Below the pieces are notes generated by a model. That model saw nothing but the letters and a program-made list of their open reading frames with translations. It was not told where the DNA came from and did not search any database. Shown one piece after another: positions 11,171 to 40,392 of a stretch of DNA of 64,000 nt (the first letter of the stretch is position 1; each line of letters opens with the position of its first letter). Source of the stretch: an uncultured Anaerovibrio sp. (GTDB lineage Bacteria; Bacillota; Negativicutes; Selenomonadales; Selenomonadaceae); assembly GCF_947302755.1 (NCBI RefSeq), contig NZ_CAMYWM010000001.1, forward strand, positions 625 to 64,624, in the 5' to 3' direction. The translations under genes were made by a program, and so were the position numbers.

Positions 11171-11184
11171 AGGACGAGGATATA

Positions 11185-16304: not shown

Positions 16305-17248
16305 AACAAGTTCTGATTGTAGGCACAGGAGGAATAGCAGGAGAGTATTGCAAGGTACTTCATGCTATTGGTATAGAGCCCGACGTTGTGGGAAGAAATG
16401 AAGATAAGGCAAAGAAGTTTGGGGAAAAACATGCTGTCACAGCCTTTGGCGGTGGTATCGATAATTATTTGGCAAATACTGGAAAAAAATATGATTATGC
16501 CATTGTTGCCACTGATGTTTTGAATCTTTGTACCAATACTTGTTCTTTGCTTGAGCATGGCATAAAAAAAATTTTCACAGAAAAACCAGCTGGTATGAAT
16601 AAGGCAGAGATTACCAAGATATGTCAGAATGCAGAAAAATATAATGCCAAGGTATATGTGGCATATAACAGAAGATTTTATGCTTCAACTACTAAAGCTA
16701 TAGATATTATACAGGAGGATGGTGGAGTACAATCATTCAATTTTGAATTTACCGAGTGGAGTCATGAAATTGAGTCATTGCCTACCCCGGCCGAAGTGAA
16801 AGAAGAATGGTTTTTGGCAAATTCTACGCATGTAGTGGATTTGGCTTTTTTCTTAGGAGGTGAGCCTGAAAAAATGGCCAGCTTTATTACTGGTGGCTTA
16901 TATTGGCACCCAAAAGGCTGTGTTTATTCCGGTGCCGGAATGACCAAGAATAAGGCACTTTTTAGTTATCAGGCTAACTGGGCAGCTCCGGGCCGTTGGG
17001 TAGTTGAAATATTAACTAGCAAACATAGATTGTATTTTAGCCCTATGGAGAAATTGTCCATTCAGGAATTGGGTTCTGTAGTTGTTAATCCTGTTGAGAT
17101 TGATGACAAGATAGACTTGGATTATAAACCAGGCTTTTATAAGGAGGTTGATTCCTTTATAAATGAAATTGATGATGGTAAAAAGAAGACAATTCAGGAT
17201 CAGCTCCGTTATATGGAATATTTTGACAAGATAGAAGGAAAAGCATAA
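16289..17248 (+). CDS. Gfo/Idh/MocA-like NAD(P) oxidoreductase
   Basis: Motifs VLIVGTGGIAGEY and IFTEKPAG (EKP motif). Overlaps the upstream gene by 16 nt. Confidence 0.65.
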   Translation: MSNNLKQVLIVGTGGIAGEYCKVLHAIGIEPDVVGRNEDKAKKFGEKHAVTAFGGGIDNYLANTGKKYDYAIVATDVLNLCTNTCSLLEHGIKKIFTEKPAGMNKAEITKICQNAEKYNAKVYVAYNRRFYASTTKAIDIIQEDGGVQSFNFEFTEWSHEIESLPTPAEVKEEWFLANSTHVVDLAFFLGGEPEKMASFITGGLYWHPKGCVYSGAGMTKNKALFSYQANWAAPGRWVVEILTSKHRLYFSPMEKLSIQELGSVVVNPVEIDDKIDLDYKPGFYKEVDSFINEIDDGKKKTIQDQLRYMEYFDKIEGKA

Positions 17249-17283
17249 TATCTATCAAGATTATTGTATTAGGATGATATAAC

Positions 17284-18492
17284 ATGTTTAATTTAGATGC
17301 ATTTATTAATAAATACGTTATCAAGCGGGAGCAAAGCATGTTCCTTGGGGATATCGAGGTAAATAAAGTGCAGTTAAGTAAAAAAATAGCTGGAAAAACG
17401 GTTTTGGTTATTGGTGGAGCTGGTTCTATTGGTTCATCATTTATTAAGGCTATTTTGCCGTTTAAGCCTGCGACTCTTGTTGTGGTGGATATAAACGAAA
17501 ACGGCCTAGCTGAGCTGACACGTGATTTGCGTTCCACTAAAGGTATGTATGTGCCAAAAGACTATGTTCCCTATCCAATGAACTTTGCTTCTACTGTGTT
17601 TGAAAAAATGTTCAGAATTCGAGGGGGCTTTGATATTGTGGCAAACTTTTCCGCTCATAAGCATGTTCGCTCGGAAAAAGATATTTATTCCGTTGAGGCC
17701 CTCTTGCAAAATAATGTTTTGCAGGCCAAGAAACTCTTAGATTTACTGGCGGAGCTACCTCCAGAGGAATTTTTTTGCGTGTCGACAGATAAGGCAGCTA
17801 ATCCGGCAAATATCATGGGAGCCAGCAAACGTATCATGGAGGATGTTATTTTCGCATACTCCGATAAGTTCCCGGTAAAGACGGCCCGTTTTGCCAATGT
17901 GGCCTTTTCCAATGGGTCTCTTCCAGCTGGCTTCATTGCCAGATTGCAGAAGCTACAGCCAATAAGTGCACCATCTGATGTAAAGCGGTATTTTGTATCG
18001 CCGGAGGAAAGCGGACAGATTTGTATGCTGTCCTGCATGTTGGGCAACAATCGGGAAATTTTCTTCCCACGTCTTGAAGAGGCCCAAATGATGACCTTTG
18101 ATAAGATTGCAACAACCCTTTTGGAAGAACATGGCTATGAAGTGCTGGAATGCGATAGTGATGAAGAGGCTATCGAAAAAGCGGCCGAATTGAGAAAAGG
18201 CAGCAAGCAATATCCAGTTCATTATTCTGGTTCCAATACCTCCGGTGAAAAGGCATATGAGGAATTTTATACCGAAAGCGAGACTGTAGACTTAGCACGG
18301 CTGAAATCATTGGGTGTGGTTACTGGTAAAGAAATACCTGATAAAGCAAAGGTGAAGGCTTTGTTTGACAAGCTGACCGCTGTGTTTGATAAAGAAAGTA
18401 CCACTAAAGAAGAAGTGGTAAAGATTATAGCGGAGTATTTACCGAATTTTGAGCATATTGAGACGGGGAAGTCACTGGATAGTAAGATGTAG
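17284..18492 (+). CDS. NDP-HexNAc 4,6-dehydratase, soluble CapD/PglF-type
   Basis: Motifs VLVIGGAGSIGSSF and STDKAANPANIMGASKRIME (Polysacc_synt_2 signature). Confidence 0.75.
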   Translation: MFNLDAFINKYVIKREQSMFLGDIEVNKVQLSKKIAGKTVLVIGGAGSIGSSFIKAILPFKPATLVVVDINENGLAELTRDLRSTKGMYVPKDYVPYPMNFASTVFEKMFRIRGGFDIVANFSAHKHVRSEKDIYSVEALLQNNVLQAKKLLDLLAELPPEEFFCVSTDKAANPANIMGASKRIMEDVIFAYSDKFPVKTARFANVAFSNGSLPAGFIARLQKLQPISAPSDVKRYFVSPEESGQICMLSCMLGNNREIFFPRLEEAQMMTFDKIATTLLEEHGYEVLECDSDEEAIEKAAELRKGSKQYPVHYSGSNTSGEKAYEEFYTESETVDLARLKSLGVVTGKEIPDKAKVKALFDKLTAVFDKESTTKEEVVKIIAEYLPNFEHIETGKSLDSKM

Positions 18493-18565: not shown

Positions 18566-18581
18566 AAAAAACGAAGGAGAT

Positions 18582-19766
18582 GTGAATGTGAGCAGATTTA
18601 TACCTTTATCTATACCGAATTTTGAAGGTAATGAACGGAAATATGTAGATGATGCCATTGATCAGGGGTGGGTATCCACTGGTGGTGCCTATATTACCAA
18701 GCTAGAGGAAAAGCTGGCAGGTTTTTTACATACAGATAATGTGGCAGCTTGTCAGAGCGGTACCGCTGCGCTGCATCTTTCAATGGTGGAGGCTGGTGTA
18801 CGGCCAGGCGATGTGGTTTTGGTTCCGCCACTTACCTTTATTGCAGCGGTAAATCCGGTAAAGTATCAGTTTGCTACTCCTGTATTTATCGATTGTGATG
18901 ACAGTTTTTGTATGTCTCCAGTAAAATTACAGGCATTTTGTGAAAATGAGTGCAGCTTTGATGGAAATCAGCTTCGTTATAATAATCAGCCAGTTAAGGC
19001 TGTAGTCGTGGTTCACATATTTGGCAATATGGCGGATATGGTGGCCATTATGGATATTGCTCAAAAGTATAACCTCAAAGTAGTTGAGGATGCTACCGAG
19101 GCCTTGGGTAGTAAATTTACAGCTGGTCCATTGGCGGGGCAATATGCTGGTACTATTGGTGATTTTGGCTGCTACTCCTTCAATGGGAATAAGATTATTA
19201 CCACTGGTGGCGGTGGTGCGGTTACGGCCAATAACACCAAAGTGGTAGACCATCTTCGTTATTTATCCACACAGGCAAAAAATGATGTGCATTATTACAT
19301 TCATAACGAGGTTGGTTATAACTATCGCATGACTAATCTTCAAGCCGCCTTGGGGGTGGCTCAGATGGAAGAACTGCCAGAGTTTATCCGCCGTAAGCAG
19401 GCTAATTTTCAGCTATACTGTGAATTGTTTGATAGTTTCGAGTTTGGTAAAATGGTAGGATTCCGCGATGATATTGATTCAAATATGTGGTTCTATTCTC
19501 TGGAAATAAATCGTGATAAGGTGAAAAACTCTATGCGGGATATCATTACGGCGTTGGAAAAATGTGGGATTCAGACTAGAGCTATATGGGGGCTTATTAA
19601 TGAGCAGATACCATATAAGAATGAGGTAACCTACGAGCTAGAAAAAGCACCGTATTATGCTAAGAGGATCTTAAATTTGCCGTCCAGTACCCAAATAACC
19701 AAAGCGGAAATTGAGTATGTGGTCGAGCAGGTAAAGAAAGTGTTAGGTGATTTTGCTCATGGATAA
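18582..19766 (+). CDS. DegT/DnrJ/EryC1-family sugar aminotransferase (LegC/PglE-like)
   Basis: Motifs CQSGTAALHL, FNGNKIITTGGGGAV (PLP lysine) and GYNYRMTNLQAALG. GTG start after AAGGAG. Confidence 0.85.
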   Translation: MNVSRFIPLSIPNFEGNERKYVDDAIDQGWVSTGGAYITKLEEKLAGFLHTDNVAACQSGTAALHLSMVEAGVRPGDVVLVPPLTFIAAVNPVKYQFATPVFIDCDDSFCMSPVKLQAFCENECSFDGNQLRYNNQPVKAVVVVHIFGNMADMVAIMDIAQKYNLKVVEDATEALGSKFTAGPLAGQYAGTIGDFGCYSFNGNKIITTGGGGAVTANNTKVVDHLRYLSTQAKNDVHYYIHNEVGYNYRMTNLQAALGVAQMEELPEFIRRKQANFQLYCELFDSFEFGKMVGFRDDIDSNMWFYSLEINRDKVKNSMRDIITALEKCGIQTRAIWGLINEQIPYKNEVTYELEKAPYYAKRILNLPSSTQITKAEIEYVVEQVKKVLGDFAHG

Positions 19767-20838
19767 GGAGCGAATGCAGGAGTTTTTAGCAAAATTGCCA
19801 TTGTCTGTAGTTGAGGCCATGGCAATGATAGATAGTCATGCCCACGATGCTGGATTGGTATTTATTGTTGATGAAATAAATAGACTGGTTGGCTGTATAA
19901 CAGATGGAGATATTCGTCGTTGGATATTAAAGGGCGGTGAAGTGAATGCTCCGGCAGAAAAAGTTATGTACAAAACGCCTATATATTTGTCCGAACGTGA
20001 TGCAGCCAATGCAAAGGCGGTATTGATTAAGGAAAGCATTACCGCCGTTCCCATTGTGGATGATGATAATAAAATTGTTGATATTGCGCTGTCACGAGAA
20101 GTAAGTAACATAAAAAACAGGAAAAAGAGGCTAAAAGGTGTTCCGGTGGTCATAATGGCTGGCGGTAAAGGTACTCGGCTTTATCCATATACCAAAATAT
20201 TGCCTAAGCCCCTTATTCCTATTGGAGACACCCCTATAGTGGAGCGAATCATTGATTGTTACGTGGAATATGGTATTGACAAATACTATATGACGGTTAA
20301 TTATAAAAAGGGAATGCTTCGATCCTATTTCAATGATTTGGCACCAAACTACGGCATAAAATTCGTGGAGGAGGATAAGCCATTAGGAACTGGTGGCAGC
20401 ATCAAGTTGATTGAAGATAAGTTTGACAGACCACTATTTGTTACCAATTGTGATGCACTTATTCGGGCAGATTACTCGGATATCTATGAACATCATATTA
20501 AGTGCGGGAATGATATTACAATGGTAGTTGCCCTGAAGAATATCACAGTGCCCTATGGTGTGGTGAATTCCGGGGAGAACGGCGAGTTACTCTCTATGGA
20601 AGAAAAACCTACCCTATCCTATTTCATTAATACAGGTATGTATATCATCAACCCTGAAACCATTGACTTGATACCGGATGCTACCATGTTCCACATGACG
20701 CATTTGGTGGAAAAGGTGATGAAACAGGGGGGCAAGGTTGGCACTTACCCTATAAGTGAGGATTCCTTCCTGGATATGGGTGAGTTTGAGGAAATGAAAC
20801 GAATGGAGCAGAAATTAAATATTATTTCTGATAAATGA
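19747..20838 (+). CDS. CBS-pair plus sugar-phosphate nucleotidyltransferase (PtmE-like); start uncertain (19747, 19759 or 19774)
   Basis: N-terminal CBS-like segments (LVGCITDGDIRRW, AVPIVDDDNKIVDI), then VVIMAGGKGTRLYPYTKILPKPLIPIG and EEDKPLGTGGS. Confidence 0.75.
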   Translation: MILLMDKERMQEFLAKLPLSVVEAMAMIDSHAHDAGLVFIVDEINRLVGCITDGDIRRWILKGGEVNAPAEKVMYKTPIYLSERDAANAKAVLIKESITAVPIVDDDNKIVDIALSREVSNIKNRKKRLKGVPVVIMAGGKGTRLYPYTKILPKPLIPIGDTPIVERIIDCYVEYGIDKYYMTVNYKKGMLRSYFNDLAPNYGIKFVEEDKPLGTGGSIKLIEDKFDRPLFVTNCDALIRADYSDIYEHHIKCGNDITMVVALKNITVPYGVVNSGENGELLSMEEKPTLSYFINTGMYIINPETIDLIPDATMFHMTHLVEKVMKQGGKVGTYPISEDSFLDMGEFEEMKRMEQKLNIISDK

Positions 20839-21410
20839 TTATGGAAGATATTGTGCTGGTTGGCTTTGGCGGTCATGCCAAAAGCGTGGCTGACTGTCTT
20901 GAACGGGAAGAAAAATATCATATTGTTGGTTATACAGATATGCAGGCAGCAACTTCCCAGTATGCATATTTGGGCACTGATGACAAGCTGCAGGCCATTT
21001 TTGACCGCGGTGTAAAAAATGCTGTTATTGGTATTGGCTATATGGGACGGGGAGCTATTCGGCAGCAGCTTTATAGTAAACTGAAAGAAATAGGTTTTGA
21101 GTTACCTGTTATCGTTGATCCATCTGCTATTGTTTCTGCCACAGCACTCATTGGCGAAGGTACTTTCGTGGGCAAGGGTGCCATAGTAAATGCCGAAGCA
21201 AAAATTGGGAAAATGACCATCATTAATACTAAAGCACTTGTGGAGCATGAGTGTGTAGTGGGGGATTTTGCCCATGTGGCTGTAGGAGCTGTGTTGTGCG
21301 GACAGGTGGAGATTGGCGAAGGAGCTTTTATCGGGGCGAATGCCACTGTTATTCAGTGCCGAAAAGTGGAGCCAAATACTGTAATTCCGGCAGGGGCAAC
21401 TATCAGATAA
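20835..21410 (+). CDS. NeuD/PglD-family sugar N-acetyltransferase (hexapeptide repeat)
   Basis: N-terminal VLVGFGGHAKSV, then left-handed beta-helix repeats (IGEGTFVGKGAIVNAEAKIG ... VEIGEGAFIGANATV). Confidence 0.8.
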   Translation: MIMEDIVLVGFGGHAKSVADCLEREEKYHIVGYTDMQAATSQYAYLGTDDKLQAIFDRGVKNAVIGIGYMGRGAIRQQLYSKLKEIGFELPVIVDPSAIVSATALIGEGTFVGKGAIVNAEAKIGKMTIINTKALVEHECVVGDFAHVAVGAVLCGQVEIGEGAFIGANATVIQCRKVEPNTVIPAGATIR

Positions 21411-21412: not shown

Positions 21413-22417
21413 ATGAAGGTTATGCAAAAGGTGTTGATTATTGCCGAGGCTGGCGTTAATCATAATGGAGATATAAATATTGCCAAAAGGCTGATAGATG
21501 AGGCTAAAAGAAGCGGAGCGGATATTGTGAAGTTTCAGACCTTTAATCCACAAAAGCTGGCTTCGAAATATGCGACAATGGCGGAATATCAAAAGGATAA
21601 TCTGGGCCGGGAAGAATCACAGGAAGCAATGCTCAGCAAGTTGACACTGAGTTGGGGCGAATATGTGGAGTTGGCGGAGTATTGTAAAAAGATAGGTATT
21701 AAATTCTTGTCTACTCCGTTTGAAAGCGAAAGTATTCATTTCTTGGATGATTTGCAGGATATATGGAAAATCCCGTCTGGGGAAATTACCAATTATCCTT
21801 ATCTGGTGGATATTGCCAAGACTGGAAAAGAGGTTATTCTTTCTACGGGAATGAGTAATATTGATGAGGTTAAAGGGGCCATTGATGTTTTGAAGAAACA
21901 TGGCGCAGGAAAAATCACGCTGCTCCATTGTACCACTAATTATCCAACTCCGATGGATGATGTTAATCTTAGGGCTATGCTGACGCTTGAAAAGGAATGT
22001 GGCTGTGCGGTAGGCTATTCTGACCATACGCAGGGAATAGAAGTCCCTATTGCGGCTGTGGCCATGGGGGCAACCGTAATTGAAAAGCATTTTACCCTTG
22101 ACAGGAATATGGATGGACCTGATCATAAGGCCAGCTTGGAGCCAGATGAGTTAAAGGCAATGGTTTCTGCCATTAGAAATGTGGAGAAGGCTATGGGAGA
22201 TGGCAATAAAGTACCGTCACCATCCGAAATGGCCAATATAGCTGTGGTCAGAAAGAGCATTATTGCAGCCAAGGACATAAGGGCCGGTGAAATTTTTTCT
22301 GAGGAAAATTTGACGACCAAACGGCCGGGAACAGGAATCAATCCAATGCGTTGGAATGAGGTTTTAGGGCAAAAAGCTAAACGGGATTTTGCAGAGGATG
22401 AACTGATAGAGTTATGA
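21413..22417 (+). CDS. Nonulosonic acid synthase (NeuB/LegI family)
   Basis: Motifs IIAEAGVNHNGD, GADIVKFQTF, KIPSGEITNYP, STGMS, LLHCTTNYP, GYSDHT, EKHFTLD, plus a C-terminal SAF-like domain. The internal ATG was chosen because the 21251 extension overlaps the acetyltransferase gene. Confidence 0.9.
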   Translation: MKVMQKVLIIAEAGVNHNGDINIAKRLIDEAKRSGADIVKFQTFNPQKLASKYATMAEYQKDNLGREESQEAMLSKLTLSWGEYVELAEYCKKIGIKFLSTPFESESIHFLDDLQDIWKIPSGEITNYPYLVDIAKTGKEVILSTGMSNIDEVKGAIDVLKKHGAGKITLLHCTTNYPTPMDDVNLRAMLTLEKECGCAVGYSDHTQGIEVPIAAVAMGATVIEKHFTLDRNMDGPDHKASLEPDELKAMVSAIRNVEKAMGDGNKVPSPSEMANIAVVRKSIIAAKDIRAGEIFSEENLTTKRPGTGINPMRWNEVLGQKAKRDFAEDELIEL

Positions 22418-23568
22418 AGAAAATAGCTGTTGTCACTGCAACAAGGGCCGAGTATGGCCTTCTGTCGCCAGTAATAAAAGAATTACGAAAACAGGAAACC
22501 GCAGATTTTAAGGTCGATTTAATTGTCACCGGAACTCATCTTAGTGAAAAATATGGAATGACTTTAAATGAGATTGATGAAAGAGTTGATTGTAAATTAC
22601 CTATTTCGGTTGAATCTGATACAGAATTGGATATTTCCCAAAATCAGGCTGAGGTATTGGTAAAATTTACTGAGTTATTCGTCAAAGAACAATATAAAGC
22701 GGTTCTTCTGCTTGGTGACAGATATGAAACCCTGACTGTTGCTATTGCGGCTGGAAATACGAGGACACCGATTTTCCATCTCTGTGGCGGTGATACTACA
22801 GAGGGAGCATTGGATGAGTGGATTAGGCACTCTATTACCAAAATGAGTTATCTACATTTTGTGACTAATGAGGATAGCCGCAAGCGGGTAATGCAGCTGG
22901 GTGAATCACCTGATAGGGTGTTTAACTATGGGTCTACCAGCATAGATAATATTTTGCATGTTGCTGATATGACCAAAACTGAGGCACTGCAAAGTATCGG
23001 CTTGGGTGATTGTAAATATGCTCTTTGTACCTATCACCCAGTGACTATGGATAATGGCAATGTTGATGAGCTAATAAAGGCTTTTCTTGCGGCGATTAAG
23101 GCATTTCCAGAGTTACAGTTCATTGTAACCAAATCCAATGCCGACCAGGGCGGGGCCAGGATAAATGAGTTGCTGGATGAAGCCGAAAAGCAGATAGATA
23201 ATCTTCATGTATATACTTCCCTCGGAGTGAGACGGTATTTGTCATTGATGAAGTATGCTGAGTTGGTGCTGGGTAACTCTTCCAGTGGTATAATAGAAAC
23301 GCCGGCTTTTCGTGTGCCAACGGTAAATATTGGAGATAGACAACGGGGAAGACTGCAGTCCGTAAGCATTATTAACTCTGATGTAGATAAAAACAGCATT
23401 GTGAATGCAATCAGACAAGCATTATCTGATGAACATAAAATCATTTGTAAAAGTGTGATCAGCCCGTATGGTGATGGTACCGCAGCGGAGAAAATTGCGA
23501 AAAAGATAGTTGAAATCGTTACAAATGGCACGATAGACTTGAAAAAGAATTTTTATATTGTATCATAG
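22414..23568 (+). CDS. Hydrolysing NDP-HexNAc 2-epimerase (NeuC/LegG family)
   Basis: Motifs IAVVTATRAEYGLLSPV, LLGDRYE, HLCGGDTTEGALDE, GNSSSGIIETPAF..PTVNIGDRQRGR. Confidence 0.85.
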   Translation: MKKIAVVTATRAEYGLLSPVIKELRKQETADFKVDLIVTGTHLSEKYGMTLNEIDERVDCKLPISVESDTELDISQNQAEVLVKFTELFVKEQYKAVLLLGDRYETLTVAIAAGNTRTPIFHLCGGDTTEGALDEWIRHSITKMSYLHFVTNEDSRKRVMQLGESPDRVFNYGSTSIDNILHVADMTKTEALQSIGLGDCKYALCTYHPVTMDNGNVDELIKAFLAAIKAFPELQFIVTKSNADQGGARINELLDEAEKQIDNLHVYTSLGVRRYLSLMKYAELVLGNSSSGIIETPAFRVPTVNIGDRQRGRLQSVSIINSDVDKNSIVNAIRQALSDEHKIICKSVISPYGDGTAAEKIAKKIVEIVTNGTIDLKKNFYIVS

Positions 23569-23588: not shown

Positions 23589-24584
23589 ATGAATGCGATT
23601 GTCGTCGGTCTTGGCTCAATGGGAAGACGAAGAGCCAGATTGCTACATGATTTAGACAAAACTATAAAAATAATTGGTGTGGATATGCAAGATTCCCGCA
23701 GAAAACAAGCTGAGGATGAATTGGGGATTGTAACTTGTGAGACGATTGAAAAGGCATGTAAGGAATATCAACCAGATATGGCATTTGTTTCCACCTCGCC
23801 GTTATCACATGCAGCAATTATAAATGAGTGTCTGGAGAATAATCTCCATGTTTTCACTGAGTTAAACTTAGTTACTAATGGCTATGACGAGAATGTTAAG
23901 CTGGCCCAAACCAAAGGAAAAAAATTGTTTTTGTCGTCGACGTTCCTTTATAGAAAAGAGATTCAATATATAAAGCAAGCCGTTTCTTCTGCTGGATGCC
24001 CGCTTTCGTATATGTATCATGCCGGGCAATATTTACCAGATTGGCATCCTTGGGAAAGCTACAAGGACTTTTTCATAGGAAAAAAAGAGACAAACGGTTG
24101 TCGCGAGTTTATGGCAATCGAATTTCCATGGTTGATTGATGTTTTTGGCAATATAAAGTCTATTAAATCGATTAAAGGAAATGACAGCAGTCTGGATATT
24201 GATTTTGCCGATATATACCACATTATGATAGAACATGAGACTGGTCATAAAGGAATGATTACTGTTGATGTCGTTTCGCGGAAGGCTGTCCGCAATATGG
24301 AAATATCAGGTGAAAAGCTCTATTTAACTTGGCATGGAACCCCGGATTCCCTGAAGGTTTATGACTATGACAACAAGCTGGATAAGGATATAGTTCTATA
24401 TGATTCAGTAGAAAACAGAGCTGGATATAGTGCATTTATCATTGAAGATGCATATAGAAGTGAAATTGAGAATTTCCTGAATGTGGTTGCAGGGAAAGAA
24501 AAAGCCAAATACTCGTTTGAACAGGACAAAAGAGTTCTTTCAATAATAGATGAGATTGAAGAAAGTGAGGATAACTTAAAATGA
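23589..24584 (+). CDS. Gfo/Idh/MocA-like oxidoreductase, intact paralog of 26706-27687
   Basis: Motifs MNAIVVGLGSMGRRRA and YHAGQYLPDWHPWES, shared almost verbatim with the split gene downstream. RBS GAAAGG lies 9 nt upstream of the ATG at 23589. Confidence 0.6.
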   Translation: MNAIVVGLGSMGRRRARLLHDLDKTIKIIGVDMQDSRRKQAEDELGIVTCETIEKACKEYQPDMAFVSTSPLSHAAIINECLENNLHVFTELNLVTNGYDENVKLAQTKGKKLFLSSTFLYRKEIQYIKQAVSSAGCPLSYMYHAGQYLPDWHPWESYKDFFIGKKETNGCREFMAIEFPWLIDVFGNIKSIKSIKGNDSSLDIDFADIYHIMIEHETGHKGMITVDVVSRKAVRNMEISGEKLYLTWHGTPDSLKVYDYDNKLDKDIVLYDSVENRAGYSAFIIEDAYRSEIENFLNVVAGKEKAKYSFEQDKRVLSIIDEIEESEDNLK

Positions 24585-25882
24585 CACAAAATGAGATTTA
24601 TGGCAAAAAGGCACATGAGCTGATTCCAGCCGGTGCACATACTTATAGCAGAACAGATGAGGTTTTTCCAGAAAATGCTCCGCGTGTATTCAGTCATACA
24701 AAGGGAGTTTATGCCTGGGATGTTGATGGAAATAAATATTTGGATTTTGCCATGGCGTGCCGCTCAGTAACTATTGGCTATGATTATGAGCGGATTTCAA
24801 ATGCTGCCATTGCCCAGATTCATAACGGAAATACAGCAAGTAAGGCTTCCAAGGTTGAGGTTGATGCTGCCCAGACTATGGTTGATCTTATTCCGTGGAT
24901 TGATATGGTTAAGTTTGCTAAAAATGGTTCCACGGTAACTTCGGCTGCCACTAAGCTTGCCAGGGCATATACTGGCAGAAAATATATCGTACGGTGCAAG
25001 GAGCATTCTTTTTTCTCCTACGATGACTGGTTTATTGGTGATACTGTCATGGATGGCGGTATTCCAAAGGATATTAAGGATTTAACACTGCAGTTCAATT
25101 ACAATGATATAGCATCTGTTAAGAGTGTATTTGAAAAGTATAAGGGCCAGATTGCCTGCCTTATTATGGAGCCGGTTGATGACCAGGAGCCAACAAATAA
25201 TTTCCTGCAGGAAGTTGGCAAACTTTGTAAGGAATATGGTGTAGTGTATATTTTGGATGAAATGATTACCGGATTCCGTTGGGATTTACAAGGTGCTTGC
25301 AAATATTATGGTGTAGAACCAGATTTGGTGACCTACGGCAAGGGAATGGCCAATGGCTTCTCTGTAGCAGCTCTTGGTGGAAAGCGAGAGATTATGGACT
25401 TGGGTGGACTTACACCTGGCAAGGAAAGAGTGTTCCTGATCTCGACCACCCATGGTGCAGAGATGAGCAGCCTGGGCGCATTTATTGAAACTGTAAAAGT
25501 ATACAAAGAATTAAATGTTACAGATCATATTTGGGCAATGGGTAAAAAGCTTTGTTCCGGGCTTCGTGATTTAGCCAAAGAGTATTCTTTGGAAGATTAT
25601 TTTTATATCACTGGGGCTGAATGCTCACCTAATATGGTTATTTGCGGTAATGACAAAAAGCCATCCTTTGAGCATAGAACAGTATTTTGCCAGGAAATGC
25701 TAAAGGCTGGAATTTTGATGCCGTATATTGCCATTGCATATGAACACAATGACAAGGAGATAGATATGGCCTTGGAAGCTGCCCGGAAAGCTATGAAGGT
25801 GTTGTCTGATTCGTTAAACGGCAATGTTAATGACTTTATTATTGGCAATGTTATTAAACCTGTTTTCAGAAAATATAACTGA
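24581..25882 (+). CDS. Class-III (GSA-aminomutase-like) PLP aminotransferase
   Basis: Motifs ILDEMITGFRW and VTYGKGMANGFSVAALGGKREIM, parallel to the hemL block at the start of the window. Confidence 0.8.
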   Translation: MTQNEIYGKKAHELIPAGAHTYSRTDEVFPENAPRVFSHTKGVYAWDVDGNKYLDFAMACRSVTIGYDYERISNAAIAQIHNGNTASKASKVEVDAAQTMVDLIPWIDMVKFAKNGSTVTSAATKLARAYTGRKYIVRCKEHSFFSYDDWFIGDTVMDGGIPKDIKDLTLQFNYNDIASVKSVFEKYKGQIACLIMEPVDDQEPTNNFLQEVGKLCKEYGVVYILDEMITGFRWDLQGACKYYGVEPDLVTYGKGMANGFSVAALGGKREIMDLGGLTPGKERVFLISTTHGAEMSSLGAFIETVKVYKELNVTDHIWAMGKKLCSGLRDLAKEYSLEDYFYITGAECSPNMVICGNDKKPSFEHRTVFCQEMLKAGILMPYIAIAYEHNDKEIDMALEAARKAMKVLSDSLNGNVNDFIIGNVIKPVFRKYN

Positions 25883-25992
25883 TTTTTATTGCGCATTAAG
25901 GCGGCACCCTAATTGTAGATATGGTATATTATTATCTGCTATTAGCGAGGTATAGAAAGGTGGAGAATGTATCCGCCGCAGATACATAATTG

Positions 25993-26709
25993 ATGTATAA
26001 GGGAAAAAAGATTTTGGCGGTTGTGACGGCTCGGGGGGGCTCCAAAGGACTTCCTGGCAAAAATATACGGCCAATGCACGGTAAACCACTGATACAGTGG
26101 ACTATTAAATCCGCTCATAATAGTAAGTATTTGGATAAGTTGTTCATTTCCACAGATAGCCTGGAAATTGCTGATGTTTGTGAAATGGCGGGTGCACCGG
26201 TTCCGGAACTGAGACCGGAGGAACTGGCCCAGGACAAGTCATCATCGATGGATGTGCTGGTATATACACTGGAATTGCTGGAAAAACAAGGAGAAAAATA
26301 TGACTATTTGATTCTGCTGGAACCGACCTCACCTCTTCGTAAAGAACAGGATATAGACAAGATGATCGAGCTGGCGGTAGATAATCCTGAGGCTGATGGG
26401 GTTATTTCTGTGGGCCGGGTCCACTTGGAGCATCCGTCTATTGTGAAAAAAATAGACGAAAATGGGTTTATTTGTCCGTATTTTGAGCATGTACCAACCT
26501 TTTATCAAAGACAGGAAGAAGATGCGGCATATTTCCCATATGGGGTAGGTTATCTGGTTCGGGTGGACAGGTTTAAAGAAACTCATGCTGTCTACATGGA
26601 AAAAATGTTGCCATATTATATCGAAAGATGGCAGAACTATGAGATAGACGATATCTATGATTTTGAGTGTATTGAAAAAATAATGGAGCTGGAGGAACAG
26701 TATAAATGA
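25993..26709 (+). CDS. CMP-nonulosonic acid synthetase (NeuA/LegF family cytidylyltransferase)
   Basis: Motif ILAVVTARGGSKGLPGKNIRPMHGKPLI. About 239 aa. Confidence 0.85.
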   Translation: MYKGKKILAVVTARGGSKGLPGKNIRPMHGKPLIQWTIKSAHNSKYLDKLFISTDSLEIADVCEMAGAPVPELRPEELAQDKSSSMDVLVYTLELLEKQGEKYDYLILLEPTSPLRKEQDIDKMIELAVDNPEADGVISVGRVHLEHPSIVKKIDENGFICPYFEHVPTFYQRQEEDAAYFPYGVGYLVRVDRFKETHAVYMEKMLPYYIERWQNYEIDDIYDFECIEKIMELEEQYK

Positions 26710-27687
26710 GTTGTTATTATGTTAAAGGCCTGGGCTCAATGGGTAAGCGTCGTGTGCGTTGCCTTATGGCACTGGGCGTAAAGCCAGAGAATATCTGGGG
26801 AAATGATATAAGACAGGATCGGTGTGATGAAGCCAAGGAAAAGTATGGTATCAATATAGTGGATGATGAATCAGAGCTGGATTTTGACAAGATTGATGCT
26901 GTTATTGTATCCTTGCCACCGGATAAGCATAAAATTGGTGTTGATATAGCTGTTAAATACCATAAGCCTGTTTTCGTGGAAGCCAGTGTGGTTCTTGAGG
27001 AAAAACGATAGCAATGGCATTTTTGTTGCGCCTTCCTGCACATTTGTTTTCCATCCTATGGTTAAGGAAATAAAGAAGATCGTTGAAACTGGCAAATTGG
27101 GCAAGATGTGCAATTTCTCATACCATAGTGGCCAGTATTTACCTGATTGGCACCCATGGGAAAGTGTAAATGATTTTTATGTAGGCAATCGGTTGACTGG
27201 TGGGGCTAGAGAAATAGTTCCTTATGAATTAACCTGGCTGACAGATGTTTTTGGGTTCCCAAAAGAAATTAAGGGATATTTCCGTAAGACAGGCGATATT
27301 GGCTGTGATATAGAGGACAGCTATGCAAGCACTATCGACTATGGTGATTCCATAGGTACCCTGATTGTCGATGTAATGAGCCGTTATCCAGCCAGAAACC
27401 TTATTATCAATTTCCAGAATGGCCAGATTCAGTGGAAATGGGATGAGGAGCGTCTGACTGTATATAATGCAGCGGATGGAACTACTACATATATAAAACA
27501 GGAAAAGCAGCCGCATGAAGAAGGCTATGCTGATATGATAGGCGAGCAGATGTATATCGATGAAATAGCGGCTTTCCTCGCCGGTACAAAAGATGCGAAA
27601 GCTTATCCTAGCACGGTAGATAAGGATATACAGGTCCTCAGGCTTTTGAATTCAATTGAGGATTCAGATGGAGGCTTTGACAGATAA
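26706..27687 (+). pseudogene. Gfo/Idh/MocA-like oxidoreductase split by a +1 frame change at an A5 run (27001-27005)
   Basis: The 101-aa ORF (26706-27011) matches the N-terminus of the 23589 paralog (KGLGSMGKRR). The 233-aa ORF (26986-27687) matches its C-terminal two thirds (YHSGQYLPDWHPWES). Removing one A would join them as ..VVLEENDSNGIF.. Confidence 0.75.
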
Positions 27688-27689
27688 AA

Positions 27690-28448
27690 ATGAAAGTTGC
27701 TCTTGCGCAATTCGATATAATTTGGGAGGATAAGGAATCTAATATTGCCAACGCTGAATCTCTTATTGCTGCTGCTGCAAACGATGGCTCAGACATTATA
27801 TTTTTTCCTGAAATGAGCTTTACTGGGTTTTCCATGAATACGCGTGTTACAGGGGAGAAGAACAGCTACACTGTTGACAGGATAAGCAATATTGCGAAAC
27901 AAAATGATATAGCTGTTGGTTTTGGTTGGGTGAGATGGCATGACAATAAATGTGAGAATGTTTATACTCTGTTAGATTCTTCAGGTAAAATAGTATCAGA
28001 ATATGTTAAGATGCATCCTTTTTCCTATTCCGGGGAAGATAAGTATTTTGCCGGCGGAGAGAAAGTAATGGTTGCTGATTTTAAGGGGATACCCTTCTCG
28101 ACATTCATTTGTTATGATTTGAGATTCCCTGAAATATTCCGGGCAGTTGCAAAGGATGTGCATATGATAATCGTGCCTGCATGTTGGCCTTCCAAACGTG
28201 CTGAACATTGGAAAACCTTGCTTAGGGCACGGGCAATTGAAAATCAGGTGTATATTCTGGGAATAAATTGTCAGGGAAATATCGGTGGGCTGTATTACTC
28301 CGGTGACAGTTGCGTTATTACCCCTAATGGGGATATAGCCGTATCAATGTCGAATGAGTGTGGATTATTAACTTATAACTTGATGGATGATGTTGAAGAG
28401 TATAGAAAGGGATTTCCGGTTCTCAAGGATATGAAGCCAATCCCTTAA
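27690..28448 (+). CDS. Carbon-nitrogen hydrolase (nitrilase superfamily)
   Basis: Glu-Lys-Cys triad context: FFPEMSFTGF, YVKMHPF, ICYDLRFPE. Confidence 0.8.
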   Translation: MKVALAQFDIIWEDKESNIANAESLIAAAANDGSDIIFFPEMSFTGFSMNTRVTGEKNSYTVDRISNIAKQNDIAVGFGWVRWHDNKCENVYTLLDSSGKIVSEYVKMHPFSYSGEDKYFAGGEKVMVADFKGIPFSTFICYDLRFPEIFRAVAKDVHMIIVPACWPSKRAEHWKTLLRARAIENQVYILGINCQGNIGGLYYSGDSCVITPNGDIAVSMSNECGLLTYNLMDDVEEYRKGFPVLKDMKPIP

Positions 28449-28538: not shown

Positions 28539-29786
28539 ATGGATATCAATGATAATAGGGCAAGAATATTATTTGTCTGCTCTACAAAATTATTATTATT
28601 TAATGCTTTGCATGTTCGTATGCATATGTTCCCAAATGCCAAAGCAGATATAATATTTGATTTTTCGCGTCCGGAAACAGTTGCCTGCGCTGAGCGAATC
28701 AGTCAAACAAAATTGTTTGATAATGTTGCATTTAGATCGCCTCCCTATGTCGATTTTAAGGAATATTTCAGTTTAGTTAGAAATAATCAGCCTGCACCAT
28801 CACTCTTTACTGCCATCAAAAATACTGTCAATAAATATGGTAAAACAGGCCATAGAAATGCTGATAGCAGAGAACAGTATCTGGAGCAACAAATACATGG
28901 GTATGAAAAACTGGATATTAGCCGGTATACACATATATTTGGGTATGGTAATACCGATACTATAAGGAACATAGTTTCGCTAGCCAAAGAAAAAAATAAA
29001 ACCTGTAAAATGTGTGTGTTGGAAGAGGGAATAGGTTCATATTTCAGAGAATATATTTGCAACGATATAAAGCCTGACAGTATTTTCCTTTACAGTCCCA
29101 ATATGGTTTTGTATGAATATGATGAAAGAATAACTAAAATTCCGCCAATAGATAAAAATGACAAGGAATTTATTGATTGTGTAAACCTTGTTTTTAATCA
29201 CAGAGATAAAGAGAAGGTAGAAAATAAAATTATCTTTTTTGATGACCATGCTTCTGACATGCCGGGGTATTTGAAAATAAGTAAATTGTTATCAAAAACC
29301 CTGCTTCGCAATTCATATAAAAAACATGTGAGAGAAATGCGCTTTCTTCAGTTGCAGAGAGAAGCTTTTGAATTACTTTGCAAATACCGTAATAACAGGG
29401 AGGTAATTGTAAAACTTCATCCTACTACTAAACGCAATACTATCGAAGAGGAATATTTAAACAGACCCGGAGTTTCGGTACTGGAGGCAGCCTTTGCACC
29501 GTGGGAAGTGGTTTGTTTAAATAACGATGTACATAATAACATTATTGTAACTATGATGTCGGCGGCAGTTAAAGGAAATAGTATTTTCACGGGATACACG
29601 GACAATAACGTATATATTGTTTTGGTTGATCTTGTGTCAGATATCTATGACAATGAGAAGGGCAGTGCATTACTCAAAAAATGGAGTGAGCAGGAAAATA
29701 TACATGTTATTTTCCCGCAAGATATTGGTGAATATGAAGAATATTTAAAGTCCAATAATTCCAAGATGACAGATAACTGGAGATAA
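28539..29786 (+). CDS. Putative nonulosonic-acid (sialyl-type) transferase, paralog 2
   Basis: E-E-G at 29022-29030 (CVLEEGIGSY) and H-P at 29418-29423 (VKLHPTTKR). Paralogous to 14008-15207. Confidence 0.5.
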   Translation: MDINDNRARILFVCSTKLLLFNALHVRMHMFPNAKADIIFDFSRPETVACAERISQTKLFDNVAFRSPPYVDFKEYFSLVRNNQPAPSLFTAIKNTVNKYGKTGHRNADSREQYLEQQIHGYEKLDISRYTHIFGYGNTDTIRNIVSLAKEKNKTCKMCVLEEGIGSYFREYICNDIKPDSIFLYSPNMVLYEYDERITKIPPIDKNDKEFIDCVNLVFNHRDKEKVENKIIFFDDHASDMPGYLKISKLLSKTLLRNSYKKHVREMRFLQLQREAFELLCKYRNNREVIVKLHPTTKRNTIEEEYLNRPGVSVLEAAFAPWEVVCLNNDVHNNIIVTMMSAAVKGNSIFTGYTDNNVYIVLVDLVSDIYDNEKGSALLKKWSEQENIHVIFPQDIGEYEEYLKSNNSKMTDNWR

Positions 29787-29787: not shown

Positions 29788-31212
29788 ATGAATTTTAATT
29801 CTTTGGAATATGCTATATTTTTGCCAATAGTATTTTGCTTGTATTGGCTTATGCCTCATCGTTTTCGATGGGCATTTTTATTGTTGGCGAGCTACTATTT
29901 CTATATGAGCTGGAATCCGCAATATATTGTGTTGATATTGGGGACTACAGCAATTTCATTTTTTGCGGCATTGTTGATAGAAAAATGTGACACAGTCCGG
30001 GCAAAGAAGATGGTTTTGGCGGGAGCTGTGTTCGTTTGTCTGGGTGTACTGTTTTGTTTTAAATATTTTAATTTCATGTCAGCTTCTTTGGTTGAGCTGT
30101 GTTCCCTTTTGGCCATAAATCTTCATCCCATAACTCTAAATGTGCTGTTGCCAGTTGGAATATCCTTCTACACATTTCAGACCATGGGATATGTTATAGA
30201 TGTTTACCGGGGGAATGTGAAGGCAGAGAGACATTTTGGCGAGTATGCGGCATTTATATCCTTCTTTCCCCAGTTGGTAGCTGGTCCTATTGAGCGGACA
30301 GCCAATCTTCTGCCTCAAATAAAAACAGTCAAAAAATTTGATTATGATGAAGCTGCCTATGGCCTTCGGCTCATGGCTTGGGGGTTCTTCAAAAAAATAG
30401 TTATAGCTGATAATGCTGCTATTGTAGTAGATAGCGTTTATTCATCTTTGGATAGATGCACGGGATTTGATCTGATACTTGCAGTGCTGTTTTTTACGAT
30501 GCAGATATATTGTGATTTTTCCGGGTACTCGGATATTGCTATTGGTACTGCCAGATTGTTGGGCATAAAGCTTATGACAAATTTCAAAAGCCCGTATTTT
30601 TCCGGCAGTTTAAAAGAATTTTGGAGCAGATGGCATATATCCCTTTCCACCTGGTTTAGAGATTATTTGTATATTCCTTTGGGGGGCAACAGGTGCTCCA
30701 AATTCAGGCACAACATGAATATCATGATAACCTTTCTTATAAGTGGCCTGTGGCATGGGGCAAATTGGACATTTGTACTATGGGGAGGAATTCATGGATT
30801 CATTCAGGTTGTTGAAAATGTTCTTGGTCTGAATAAAATTACGAAATCAAAATTGCAGCATATTATTTCGGTTGTTATAATTTTTTTAATTTGCAATATA
30901 GCCTGGGTATTCTTTCGTTCTAAATCAATTACAGATGCTTTTTATATTCTTGGCAATATTATTTCTGCCAACGGTGGTATTGATTGGTATATACGAAGCG
31001 GTATAGAGATAGACGAGAGTACCATTTATCACATATTGATACCTGTGGTGGCGATGATGGTATATGATTTTATATCCTTGAAACGGGATGTGATAAAATG
31101 GGTTGGTTCACAAAAAATGCTGGTACGTTGGTGCCTGTATTTTGTAATAATATTTTGGACCATACTTATGCTGCCTCTGGAAAACTCCGGCTTTATATAT
31201 TTCCAATTTTAA
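29788..31212 (+). CDS. MBOAT-family membrane O-acyltransferase (AlgI/DltB-like)
   Basis: Multi-TM protein with WHISLSTWFRDYLYIPLGGNR and LISGLWHGANW (conserved His). Confidence 0.85.
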   Translation: MNFNSLEYAIFLPIVFCLYWLMPHRFRWAFLLLASYYFYMSWNPQYIVLILGTTAISFFAALLIEKCDTVRAKKMVLAGAVFVCLGVLFCFKYFNFMSASLVELCSLLAINLHPITLNVLLPVGISFYTFQTMGYVIDVYRGNVKAERHFGEYAAFISFFPQLVAGPIERTANLLPQIKTVKKFDYDEAAYGLRLMAWGFFKKIVIADNAAIVVDSVYSSLDRCTGFDLILAVLFFTMQIYCDFSGYSDIAIGTARLLGIKLMTNFKSPYFSGSLKEFWSRWHISLSTWFRDYLYIPLGGNRCSKFRHNMNIMITFLISGLWHGANWTFVLWGGIHGFIQVVENVLGLNKITKSKLQHIISVVIIFLICNIAWVFFRSKSITDAFYILGNIISANGGIDWYIRSGIEIDESTIYHILIPVVAMMVYDFISLKRDVIKWVGSQKMLVRWCLYFVIIFWTILMLPLENSGFIYFQF

Positions 31213-31224
31213 TGGGGTATTATT

Positions 31225-32301
31225 GTGAGAACAATATTAATAAAAATGATAATACTGGCATTGACAGTATATAGCGTGGTTATATCAGTTAATTATTTTG
31301 TTGACCCTGCCAATTTATATCATGAGGGCACAGTTACCAAATTGGTGGATTGTCTCAATGATGGCAAAAATGTTAAAATTCCCGCAAATATTGATGAGGG
31401 GGTATTTCAGGAAAAAAGAATTGCAACTATGACCTGGAATCCAGAGACAGTAATAATTGGCTCAAGCCATGTTATGTATATGCCCTTTGATGATGGCAGT
31501 ATGGTATACAATGCAGGTATGTCCGGAGCATATTTAGGAGATTATTATGCTTTAACCGGACTGCTGCAATATTATGATAAAATGCCCAAGAAAATAATAA
31601 TAGGCGTTGATCCCTGGACCTTTATGCGCGGCAGTCTCGATGGGAAACATCCTTCATTGCATAGGTATGCGGAATACATGAAAAAAAACATTGATGGCTC
31701 CCAGGATACATACTATGGAGGAAATTATATTGATGATAAGTTAAAGGAACTGATTTCATTATCATATTTTCAGTCTTCCATTGCATATGCCAGAAAAAAT
31801 CTTTTTAAGGCAGAAGATGATGTAGAGACTGTTTCTGATGATCAGATTGGAGATGATGTCAAGATTATCGTGGATGGAAGGCGTGTTCCATCAGTTAAAA
31901 ATTTTCTTACCCAGAAAGAAATTGATGAGGAAATTTTAAAGCTGTTGAATAAAGGTACTATGTATCAAATGGGAACAGGCTTTAAAGAGGTTCAGCATGA
32001 TAATATTGCAGATTTTGAAAAATTGTTGCAATATTTACAGGCCAATGGGGTGGAGGTAAGCATTTATTTACCAGTATGGCATCCGAAGATTTACAGTTTT
32101 TTCTGTGAAAGTGAAGCATTTTCCGGAGTGAAAAAAATTGAGGACACCATACGCAAAATTGGTTATGGGTACCAGATTCCCGTTCATGGTGGATATGATC
32201 CAAGGGATTGTGGTATTACAGAAAACGACTTTATGGATTATCTACACCTGAAGCCGGAGAAGATGAAGGAAAACTATGAACTGATATTGGACAGTAAGTA
32301 G
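31225..32301 (+). CDS. Membrane-anchored extracytoplasmic partner of the MBOAT (DltD/AlgX-like role inferred)
   Basis: Single N-terminal TM segment (ILIKMIILALTVYSVVISV), then YFVDPANLYHEG and VIIGSSHVMYM, which is reminiscent of the DltD GSSE region. GTG start. Assigned mainly from position. Confidence 0.4.
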   Translation: MRTILIKMIILALTVYSVVISVNYFVDPANLYHEGTVTKLVDCLNDGKNVKIPANIDEGVFQEKRIATMTWNPETVIIGSSHVMYMPFDDGSMVYNAGMSGAYLGDYYALTGLLQYYDKMPKKIIIGVDPWTFMRGSLDGKHPSLHRYAEYMKKNIDGSQDTYYGGNYIDDKLKELISLSYFQSSIAYARKNLFKAEDDVETVSDDQIGDDVKIIVDGRRVPSVKNFLTQKEIDEEILKLLNKGTMYQMGTGFKEVQHDNIADFEKLLQYLQANGVEVSIYLPVWHPKIYSFFCESEAFSGVKKIEDTIRKIGYGYQIPVHGGYDPRDCGITENDFMDYLHLKPEKMKENYELILDSK

Positions 32302-40351: not shown

Positions 40352-40392
40352 CACAGTGAATTATAGCTATATCTTTGTGGAGGAAAATTGAA

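Follow-up and report, generated by a model that had tools for sequence, protein, structure and literature searches.

A class III aminotransferase module with Gfo-type oxidoreductases and a Nit-branch amidase in a legionaminic acid-type gene island of a rumen Selenomonadaceae bacterium, and its possible role in sugar amination

The lipopolysaccharide (LPS) region of a rumen member of the Selenomonadaceae, a diderm Firmicute, was analysed in a 64,000-nucleotide stretch from an uncultured Anaerovibrio sp. (contig NZ_CAMYWM010000001.1, positions 625 to 64,624 of the forward strand; the whole stretch is referred to here as the window), with emphasis on the oxidoreductase, aminotransferase and amidase genes of an island for nonulosonic acid (NulO) biosynthesis. 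The island extends from ~14 to 32 kb, where the G+C content is 0.35–0.43, down from 0.45–0.51, and its genes are all co-directional (+ strand) and densely packed. A promoter/terminator scan of 13.5–33 kb returned no convincing internal terminator and did not define operon limits. The gene set for a legionaminic acid (Leg)-type NulO appears complete in the window and is accompanied by four oxidoreductases of the Gfo/Idh/MocA family (GfoA to GfoD), a class III aminotransferase (AT3) and an amidase of the Nit branch; every gene named in the initial annotation was recovered in its place on the + strand with the expected Pfam and NCBIfam domains:

15345..16304, + strand: GfoA, divergent Gfo/Idh/MocA-like oxidoreductase (Pfam GFO_IDH_MocA, 23.7 bits, cutoff 24)
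16289..17248, + strand: GfoB, Gfo/Idh/MocA oxidoreductase with a TEKP motif (Pfam GFO_IDH_MocA, 31.2 bits)
17284..18492, + strand: LegB-type NDP-GlcNAc 4,6-dehydratase (402 aa; Pfam Polysacc_synt_2, E 2e-37)
18582..19766, + strand: LegC-family aminotransferase of the DegT type (TIGR04181, 434.7 bits, cutoff 420)
19747..20838, + strand: PtmE/LegX-type CBS and nucleotidyltransferase protein (Pfam CBS and NTP_transferase)
20835..21410, + strand: LegH/NeuD-type N-acetyltransferase (TIGR03570, 178.8 bits, cutoff 160.8)
21422..22417, + strand: LegI/NeuB-type NulO synthase (TIGR03569, 500.5 bits, cutoff 399.65)
22414..23568, + strand: LegG/NeuC-type hydrolysing 2-epimerase (TIGR03568, 400.3 bits, cutoff 235.9)
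23589..24584, + strand: GfoC, Gfo/Idh/MocA oxidoreductase (Pfam GFO_IDH_MocA, 46.7 bits, E 6e-12)
24581..25882, + strand: AT3, class III pyridoxal phosphate (PLP) aminotransferase (Pfam Aminotran_3, E 8e-42)
25990..26709, + strand: LegF-type CMP-NulO synthase (Pfam CTP_transf_3, E 2e-26)
26706..27687, + strand: GfoD, PtmF-like Gfo oxidoreductase, frameshifted (two-frame match to the intact E. ruminantium ortholog)
27690..28448, + strand: Nit-branch C-N hydrolase, candidate omega-amidase (Pfam CN_hydrolase, E 2e-41)

An architecture of CBS plus nucleotidyltransferase domains has been described for PtmE/LegX and is a marker parting Leg from pseudaminic acid (Pse) pathways (bioRxiv 10.1101/2022.03.25.485807), and the open reading frame (ORF) at 19747–20838 encodes both domains. 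LegB scored 49 bits against the PseB model (cutoff 408), and the best NCBIfam match of LegF, the sole CTP_transf_3 gene among the island ORFs scanned (12273–32301), was PseF TIGR03584 at 134 bits, under the cutoff of 205.7; no LegB- or LegF-specific model matched the 17284..18492 or 25990..26709 ORFs in the NCBIfam scan. Neither legB-legC (blastn) nor window positions 1–12000 (megablast) had a counterpart among all complete E. coli genomes, and an E. coli origin was rejected. The NeuB ORF as called mechanically begins with GTG at 21251 and overlaps legH by 160 nt, but the true start is most likely the ATG at 21422, because this codon has an upstream AAGG and yields a protein of 331 aa, the same length as its orthologs.

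AT3 lies between NeuC and the CMP-NulO synthase, as had been annotated initially, although not directly after NeuC, as GfoC intervenes. The protein passes the provisional model NF004856/PRK06209, named ‘glutamate-1-semialdehyde (GSA) aminomutase’ (586 bits, cutoff 486), and fails both hemL models (TIGR00713, 213.6 bits against a cutoff of 527.3; PRK00062, 223 against 398). An alignment of 30 sequences shows no variation at the PLP-binding lysine K254 or at the cofactor aspartate D226. The neighbours of AT3 were NulO genes, not those of a tetrapyrrole pathway, in every close relative examined; given this context and the curated score far under cutoff, AT3 was not accepted as a true HemL. A look-up by exact sequence turned up no record of AT3, and the searchable literature yielded no assigned function for the family (‘GSA aminomutase’, PRK06209). 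Its relatives number ~8000 at E<=1e-30, the best 120 all being at least 78% identical and many of them from Lachnospiraceae (78–85% identical to AT3 of the window), and a profile search returned 1131 clusters at 50% identity (E<=1e-30), many of them multi-domain.

Among these multi-domain proteins, Pfam assignments identified fusions of AT3 with the cytidylyltransferase domain (CTP_transf_3-AT3 in P0188, P0189 and P0192), with Gfo (P0252) and with GNAT (P0262), as well as a triple fusion Gfo-CTP_transf_3-AT3 (P0273) adjoining NeuB; further partners were DegT, a sugar C-methyltransferase and DUF4910. With a Bacteroidota AT3 as query, Aminotran_3 and CTP_transf_3 (SpsF-type cytidylyltransferase) occurred together in ~30 of the best 120 matches. 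Representative contexts (fused domains in parentheses) are PtmE-Gfo-(CTPtr-AT3)-SDR in locus L090, where SDR denotes a short-chain dehydrogenase/reductase, GNAT-NeuB-(Gfo-CTPtr-AT3) in L091, and Gfo-(CTPtr-AT3)-CN_hydrolase-epimerase-GT2-NeuB in L092/L093, a capsule locus without PtmE, DegT or NeuC. NeuB lay within 10 kb in 20 of 69 AT3-family loci in a sample of GTDB species, and in 16 Pse-type loci the genes no more than three positions from AT3 included GNAT (14 loci), CTP_transf_3 (12), aldo-keto reductase (11) and NeuB (10). Similar arrangements, with function unassigned, are on record for Aeromonas flagellin-glycosylation islands, which have an oxidoreductase, a CMP-synthase and a class III aminotransferase (PMC7874193), and for the O-antigen clusters of Legionella serogroups 6/12 (PMC3694923). 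Away from NulO loci, AT3 relatives sit among NDP-sugar enzymes (nucleotidyltransferases, 4,6-dehydratases, sugar C-methyltransferases and PIG-L deacetylases), and relatives in the PDB include GenB and NeoN, sugar C-6' aminotransferases. On account of these neighbourhoods and structural relatives, the family is best described as class III sugar aminotransferases, which plausibly aminate keto or aldehyde sugars.

The four Gfo genes constitute two unrelated pairs, the likeness of GfoA/GfoB to GfoC/GfoD being confined to the Rossmann N-terminus. GfoC and GfoD are paralogs (~32% identity) with a common YHxGQYLPDWHPWE motif, and both match a UDP-GlcNAc 3-dehydrogenase model weakly (31.6 bits, cutoff 450). 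At the position of the EKP motif the sequences are TELN in GfoC and VEAS in GfoD, TEKP in GfoB and FEKV in GfoA; lacking EKP, GfoC and GfoD are therefore regarded as divergent members of the family with a motif of their own. GfoC precedes AT3 throughout the close clade; in L179, L180 and L001, where a single Gfo stands before AT3, that protein is 50–59% identical to GfoC. GfoD shares 44–49% identity with the Gfo proteins encoded in PtmE-Gfo-CTPtransferase-AT3-PtmA modules (L010, L011 and L090), and this similarity, together with its position, suggests orthology to PtmF. All four Gfo genes had initially been counted as surplus, but a PtmF-type Gfo by the CMP-synthase is standard in the Leg clusters of Campylobacter, Vibrio and Plesiomonas (PMC4481668), so that not every one of the four is surplus.

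GfoD had been described as split, and two ORFs are indeed found: an N-terminal fragment (26706–27011) with the GFO_IDH_MocA N-terminal domain (26.4 bits, Pfam cutoff 24) and a C-terminal fragment (26986–27687) with GFO_IDH_MocA_C3 (30.1 bits), which align in two frames with the intact Eubacterium ruminantium ortholog at 83% and 72% identity. The cause is a frameshifting deletion, 14 nt being missing (~26995–27010) relative to the related rumen contigs L008 and L004, which encode an intact 331-aa protein. A homopolymer slip does not account for this deletion; GfoD could truly be a pseudogene, or the loss could be a variant within the population or an artefact of assembling the metagenome-derived contig. 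Because GfoD is naturally missing from the Lachnospiraceae-type loci L179 and L180, which retain the minimal unit Gfo(C-type)-AT3-CTP_transf_3, it is considered optional, and its loss in the window need not inactivate the module.

For the amidase, the best NCBIfam match was PRK10438/NF007757 (YafV-type amidohydrolase; 151.3 bits, under the cutoff of 249), and the PDB matches were headed by a C-N hydrolase of S. aureus that is uncharacterised, with yeast Nit3 after it and mouse Nit2 lower down. The Glu-Lys-Cys triad (E41, K107, C141) is invariant in five AT3-linked homologs. A homolog adjoins AT3 in nine contexts (L008, L013, L015, L092-94, L104, L112, L124, L144 and L179), namely the window and L008 taken together, Nitrospinaceae, Verrucomicrobia, the L092-94 lineage, a Lachnospiraceae metagenome-assembled genome (L179, 43% identity) and four metagenome contigs. 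An exclusive partnership of AT3 and amidase was rejected, adjacency to AT3 being rare among the closest metagenomic relatives, and a recurrent optional partnership was kept. Glutamine-dependent transamination yields 2-oxoglutaramate, which the omega-amidases Nit2, Nit3 and YafV hydrolyse; for this reason the enzyme would be better explained as an omega-amidase working beside a transaminase that uses glutamine than as the glutaminase or N-acyl amidase suggested in the initial annotation.

The order legB-legC-ptmE-legH-legI-legG-GfoC-AT3-legF-GfoD is contiguous in the bovine-rumen contigs L004–L008 at ~90% nucleotide identity to the window; L008, which has the AT3 module, is 90% identical to 17.7–28.5 kb, and L004, which has no GfoA/B upstream of legB, is 86–90% identical over 17.3–27.7 kb. 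In a single locus of E. ruminantium, a Gfo-AT3-LegF-Gfo block lies upstream of legB, beside legB/legC/ptmE/legH/legI/legG, and protein identity to the window reaches 59–81% with the same genes (highest for AT3, 81%, and LegB, 80%; lowest for PtmE, 42%, and LegH, 46%). Since the order recurs in other rumen contigs and in E. ruminantium, the grouping of these genes exceeds chance, and the link between the Gfo/class III aminotransferase pair (with or without the amidase) and the NulO pathway is borne out by cross-phylum synteny, by the fusions with CTP_transf_3 and Gfo and by the recurrent amidase adjacency. The gene identities, the synteny, the fusions, the intact catalytic residues of AT3 and amidase and the GfoD frameshift are all direct observations. 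As ~90% identical DNA adjoins mur genes in rumen contigs, the cassette also appears to be mobile.

Selenomonas sp. FC4001 (L175) has GfoA-GfoB followed by legB-legC-ptmE-legH-formyltransferase-neuB-neuC-cytidylyltransferase, without GfoC, AT3 or GfoD, in a segment 80% nucleotide-identical to window positions 15360–21355. Because this strain has the full Leg set without the AT3 module, the latter is dispensable for core Leg synthesis in this close relative, as befits a modifier. A formyltransferase gene lies just upstream of NeuB in the Leg clusters of both L175, where it follows a split LegH-like ORF, and L179, where it replaces the LegH acetyltransferase, which predicts N-formylated Leg derivatives in these loci.

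GfoA and GfoB overlap by 16 nt. The Pfam score of GfoA is 0.3 bit short of the cutoff, but its Methanobrevibacter ortholog is called as GFO_IDH_MocA, and GfoA shares 44% identity with the leading Gfo of a NeuB-adjacent pair in Methanobrevibacter L177. Homologs of GfoB number 3592 at E<=1e-10 and include proteins of Selenomonas (83%), Roseburia, Lachnospiraceae and Methanobrevibacter (55%). In L177 the pair follows NeuB, and a GfoC-type gene and another Gfo flank the cytidylyltransferase, with no AT3; four-Gfo NulO clusters thus recur in rumen and gut anaerobes, archaea included. Proteins of the Methanobrevibacter loci L177/L178 are 44–55% identical to their bacterial counterparts, a likeness that points to inter-domain sharing of NulO accessory modules. 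The L177/L178 cluster also carries several Acyl_transf_3 genes and a GT52/polysialyltransferase-like gene. GfoA-GfoB forms a separate conserved module, distinct from that of AT3 and possibly concerned with epimerisation, and the island is a mosaic of two independent accessory modules (GfoA/B and GfoC/AT3/GfoD), a pattern suggesting that rumen anaerobes have exchanged NulO cassettes horizontally.

The reading that we prefer, with a probability of roughly 40%, is that GfoC-AT3-LegF(-GfoD)-amidase represents an accessory module of the Leg-type NulO pathway that turns a sugar hydroxyl into an amine. We infer the substrate, the modified position, the amino donor and the direction of reaction as follows. 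GfoC (and GfoD where intact) would oxidise, in an NAD(P)-dependent manner, a secondary hydroxyl of a legionaminic acid-type sugar, most likely at the free-NulO or CMP-NulO stage because the module is tied to a cytidylyltransferase, the open positions being C8 or C4. AT3 would then transaminate the ketone with L-glutamine as the probable donor, and the Nit amidase would split 2-oxoglutaramate into 2-oxoglutarate and ammonia, so that the amination could not run backwards. A 5,7,x-triamino NulO would result, to be transferred into LPS by two paralogs with sialyltransferase motifs described below, after which an MBOAT system may O-acylate it. The sequence from hydroxyl through keto group to amine is considered the most economical because AT3 relatives outside NulO loci have NDP-sugar enzymes as neighbours, and the AT3 module is present in loci without PtmE and without a DegT aminotransferase (e.g. 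L092/L093). The extra amino group initially suggested for the final sugar therefore stands as the most economical prediction, and a modified sugar is plausible rather than proven.

Several points weigh against amination of the NulO. GfoC and GfoD do not have the EKP lysine of the Gfo family, GfoD is frameshifted in this genome, a GfoC-type gene is present without AT3 in Methanobrevibacter, and only 4 of the 80 closest metagenomic amidase relatives adjoin AT3. In Proteobacteria and Bacteroidota, AT3 is embedded in PtmE-PtmF-LegF-PtmA modules (L010, L011 and L090). No extra N-acyltransferase consistently accompanies AT3 in the close clade, and a new amine would therefore stay free. Aldo-keto reductases, the partners of AT3 in Pse clusters, normally reduce rather than oxidise, and a biochemical study reportedly put PtmF/PtmA in the early supply of GlcN-6-P/GDP-GlcNAc. 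Neither the substrate nor the carbon nor the amino donor can be read from sequence.

It is possible, though we consider it rather doubtful, that GfoD (or GfoC) and AT3, perhaps with the amidase, are instead a variant of PtmF/PtmA that supplies precursors to PtmE and LegB, the sugar being plain Leg5Ac7Ac; a hexose phosphate or GDP-hexose would be oxidised and transaminated to GlcN-6-P, GlcN-1-P or GDP-GlcN or, by another route, fructose-6-P would be transaminated and C1 oxidised. AT3 does occur within PtmE-Gfo-CTPtransferase-(AT3)-SDR modules (in Bacteriovorax and Pontibacter it is inserted into canonical PtmE-Gfo-cytidylyltransferase-PtmA(SDR) modules), the SDR of L010, L011 and L090 matches the PRK09186 and FlagModPtmA NCBIfam models, GfoD resembles the PtmF-position Gfo proteins at the 44–49% identity given above, and the single N-acetyltransferase of the cassette is enough if there is no extra amine. 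PtmA has been placed in the first (GDP-GlcNAc) segment of the pathway, and PtmF, an oxidoreductase of ~326 aa, adjoins LegF and PtmE in Plesiomonas, V. fischeri, E. coli and Campylobacter (PMC4481668). However, all of the fusions found join AT3 to a CMP-type cytidylyltransferase or Gfo and none to PtmE, AT3 modules occur in loci without PtmE (L092, L013, L039, L021 and Pse-type loci), and Selenomonas FC4001, with very similar PtmE, LegB and LegC, does without AT3, GfoC and GfoD. GlmS is, moreover, already present in cells, and PtmE/LegX with the six Leg enzymes was enough to bring about glycosylation with Leg when expressed in a heterologous host (bioRxiv 10.1101/2022.03.25.485807).

Decay or redundancy in this genome, with GfoD a pseudogene and the surface sugar plain (possibly O-acylated) Leg5Ac7Ac, is held to be unlikely. 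The 14-nt deletion is seen only in the window and not in the compared relatives, and the island is mosaic, its FC4001-like part having GfoA/B without AT3 and its L008-like part the AT3 module; yet GfoC, AT3, LegF and the amidase have all remained intact, catalytic residues included, the modules of L179 and L180 look functional although naturally without GfoD, and the deletion itself is possibly an assembly or population artefact. Still less probable, in our view, is a role in N-acyl chemistry, in which AT3 and the amidase would build or remodel an N-acyl substituent, for example by conversion of a keto-acyl to an amino-acyl group (alanyl, glutamyl) or by removal of a 2-oxoglutaramyl or gamma-glutamyl group, or else AT3 would be a genuine GSA aminomutase. 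Amino-acyl NulOs are known (Leg5GluNMe7Ac in C. botulinum, Leg5Ac7AcAla in V. vulnificus), Nit enzymes hydrolyse small amides, and NCBIfam gives the family the aminomutase name, with NF004856 above cutoff. The cassette, however, encodes no acyl-activating enzyme (ligase or acyl carrier protein), and the fusions with Gfo, cytidylyltransferase and sugar C-methyltransferase, together with the NDP-sugar neighbourhoods, point to a sugar substrate; an aminomutase is contradicted by the curated hemL score and by the lack of haem or corrin genes nearby.

The NulO biosynthesis genes are bracketed by two paralogous ORFs (28% identity, E 8e-51), the second of which is followed by a membrane acyltransferase and an anchored protein:

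14008..15207, + strand: putative NulO (sialyl-type) transferase, paralog 1 (399 aa; motifs LDEGVG and KMHPR)
28539..29786, + strand: putative NulO transferase, paralog 2 (415 aa; motifs LEEGIG and KLHPT)
29788..31212, + strand: MBOAT (DltB/AlgI-like) membrane O-acyltransferase (Pfam MBOAT, E 2e-26)
31225..32301, + strand: 358-aa protein with an N-terminal anchor (single N-terminal hydrophobic segment)

D/E-D/E-G and HP motifs, as typically seen in bacterial sialyltransferases (GT38/GT52/GT80 motif group), occur in both paralogs. The 14008 ORF matched Pfam A-2_8-polyST below threshold (E 0.002; 18.1 bits, cutoff 23.3), the 28539 ORF had no Pfam or PDB sequence match, and an AlphaFold2 model from the two-paralog alignment (predicted local distance difference test score, pLDDT, 42) was too poor for fold comparison. 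The two may be separate NulO transferases, giving di- or poly-NulO or two linkage types. Selenomonas L175 has a 423-aa ORF upstream of GfoA, in a position matching that of the 14008 ORF. The MBOAT protein scored 158 bits against TIGR04091, below cutoff, and has seven strongly hydrophobic windows in a simple hydropathy scan; the 358-aa protein, for which Pfam and NCBIfam scans gave no family match, is possibly its partner, judging from position. The pair (29788–32301), which is not in related cassettes, probably works as a two-component system that transfers O-acyl groups (acetyl or alanyl) to the glycan containing the NulO.

Upstream, LPS-core functions occupy 3.8–12.3 kb (three GT9 heptosyltransferases, two PfkB kinases, an HldD-type epimerase, a GmhB-like phosphatase and a GT1), and a DUF535 (VirK-like) protein (13056–13973, E 8e-77) is encoded between the genes of the LPS-core glycosyltransferases and the island. 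Downstream are pyruvate kinase, RNase R, SmpB and PFK. SmpB and the ADP-heptose epimerase belong to 90%-identity clusters that carry the names Anaerovibrio lipolyticus or Anaerovibrio sp. Farther on, at 40375–41990, an ORF with a HipA_C kinase domain is followed by one with the HipA N-terminal coupling domain and a HIRAN domain, a HipA-like toxin arrangement that is unusual in being split and re-ordered and that lies in a patch of low G+C (0.35). A second polysaccharide locus, of the Wzx/Wzy type, is located at 42705–63332 and includes genes for an initiating sugar transferase, a Wza-like exporter, Wzz, a WecG/TagA-type glycosyltransferase, a UDP-sugar dehydrogenase, a flippase, two DegT aminotransferases and a pyruvyl transferase with an F420H2-dehydrogenase-like Fe-S partner.

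Compared with the Leg-ptm cluster of Campylobacter, Vibrio and Plesiomonas, the island is alike in its six Leg enzymes, PtmE/LegX and a Gfo of ~330 aa flanking the CMP-synthase as PtmF does; it differs in having no PtmA-type SDR, a frameshifted PtmF-like gene, a second Gfo paralog (GfoC), a class III aminotransferase, a Nit amidase and the extra GfoA/GfoB pair. KdnB and KdnA of Shewanella make Kdo8N from Kdo before CMP activation, and, much as is proposed for the window, a dehydrogenase and a PLP aminotransferase there aminate a hydroxyl of a 2-keto-3-deoxy-ulosonic acid alongside a CTP_transf_3-type CMP-synthase. The comparison is one of function. KdnB belongs to the metal-dependent alcohol dehydrogenases, KdnA is not known to be a class III enzyme of the GSA-aminomutase-like kind, no amidase is known to take part, and the target is a primary alcohol (C8 of Kdo), whereas the free hydroxyls of Leg are all secondary. 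WbpB/WbpE, GnnA/GnnB and NtdC/NtdA are pairs of a Gfo-family dehydrogenase and an aminotransferase from NDP-sugar pathways, in which the Gfo gene likewise stands beside the aminotransferase that aminates the keto product; those aminotransferases are of the DegT type, and GfoC/GfoD lack the EKP lysine. Couples of glutamine transaminase and omega-amidase include GTK-Nit2, MtnE-MtnU and E. coli YafV, and the window is similar in encoding a Nit-branch C-N hydrolase with an E-K-C triad beside a transaminase, but the latter is a class III enzyme and putative glutamine user, and the amidase score is below cutoff.

The group I island of Aeromonas has the order pseB-pseC-AKR-pseF-class III aminotransferase-pseG-pseI (AKR, aldo-keto reductase) and thus the same triad of oxidoreductase, CMP-NulO synthase and class III aminotransferase in a NulO cluster, though for Pse rather than Leg and with an aldo-keto reductase in place of Gfo (PMC7874193). 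The 16 sampled Pse-type loci are taken as its counterparts, their aminotransferases being ~31–41% identical to AT3. An 8-amino-3,5,7,8,9-pentadeoxy-NulO is known from Flexibacter/Tenacibaculum maritimum (PMC3210612); it is the one NulO with a third amino group that we are able to cite, and the group is placed as predicted for a dehydrogenase and an aminotransferase acting at C8 of a 5,7-diamino NulO, but its configuration is of the manno type, tentatively L. No Tenacibaculum was among the best 120 matches to a Flavobacteriales AT3 query, and a literature search linking Tenacibaculum to the AT3 module found nothing. More broadly, and as a tentative proposal that we regard as less probable than the amination proposed for the window, Gfo-AT3-cytidylyltransferase(-amidase) would be a route to triamino NulOs (8- or 4-amino Leg/Pse), driven by glutamine and omega-amidase and common in anaerobes, which would also explain the T. 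maritimum sugar.

The suggestion in the initial annotation that these genes mark something new is not sustained: there are thousands of GfoC-AT3-LegF homologs in gut and rumen anaerobes, the triad is common in Pse and Leg clusters (PMC7874193), and NulOs with an additional amino group are no new chemical class, the 8-amino sugar being already known (PMC3210612). The module is not special to this genome, since it is widely conserved in gut and rumen anaerobes; the value lies in the general point that a very large AT3 family, often fused to CMP-NulO synthases and coupled with Gfo or aldo-keto reductase partners and a Nit amidase, is mis-annotated as ‘GSA aminomutase’. NulOs displayed on LPS, capsules and flagella influence motility, susceptibility to phages and recognition by the immune system. 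If the module supplies precursors instead, the PtmF/PtmA part of the Leg pathway would need a revised understanding. If it aminates a NulO, the PRK06209 family would gain a real function, a new transaminase/omega-amidase coupling would be added to glycan biosynthesis, and cationic or zwitterionic triamino NulOs would constitute a large unrecognised class on abundant gut and rumen anaerobes, common on Lachnospiraceae, Selenomonadaceae and many environmental bacteria.

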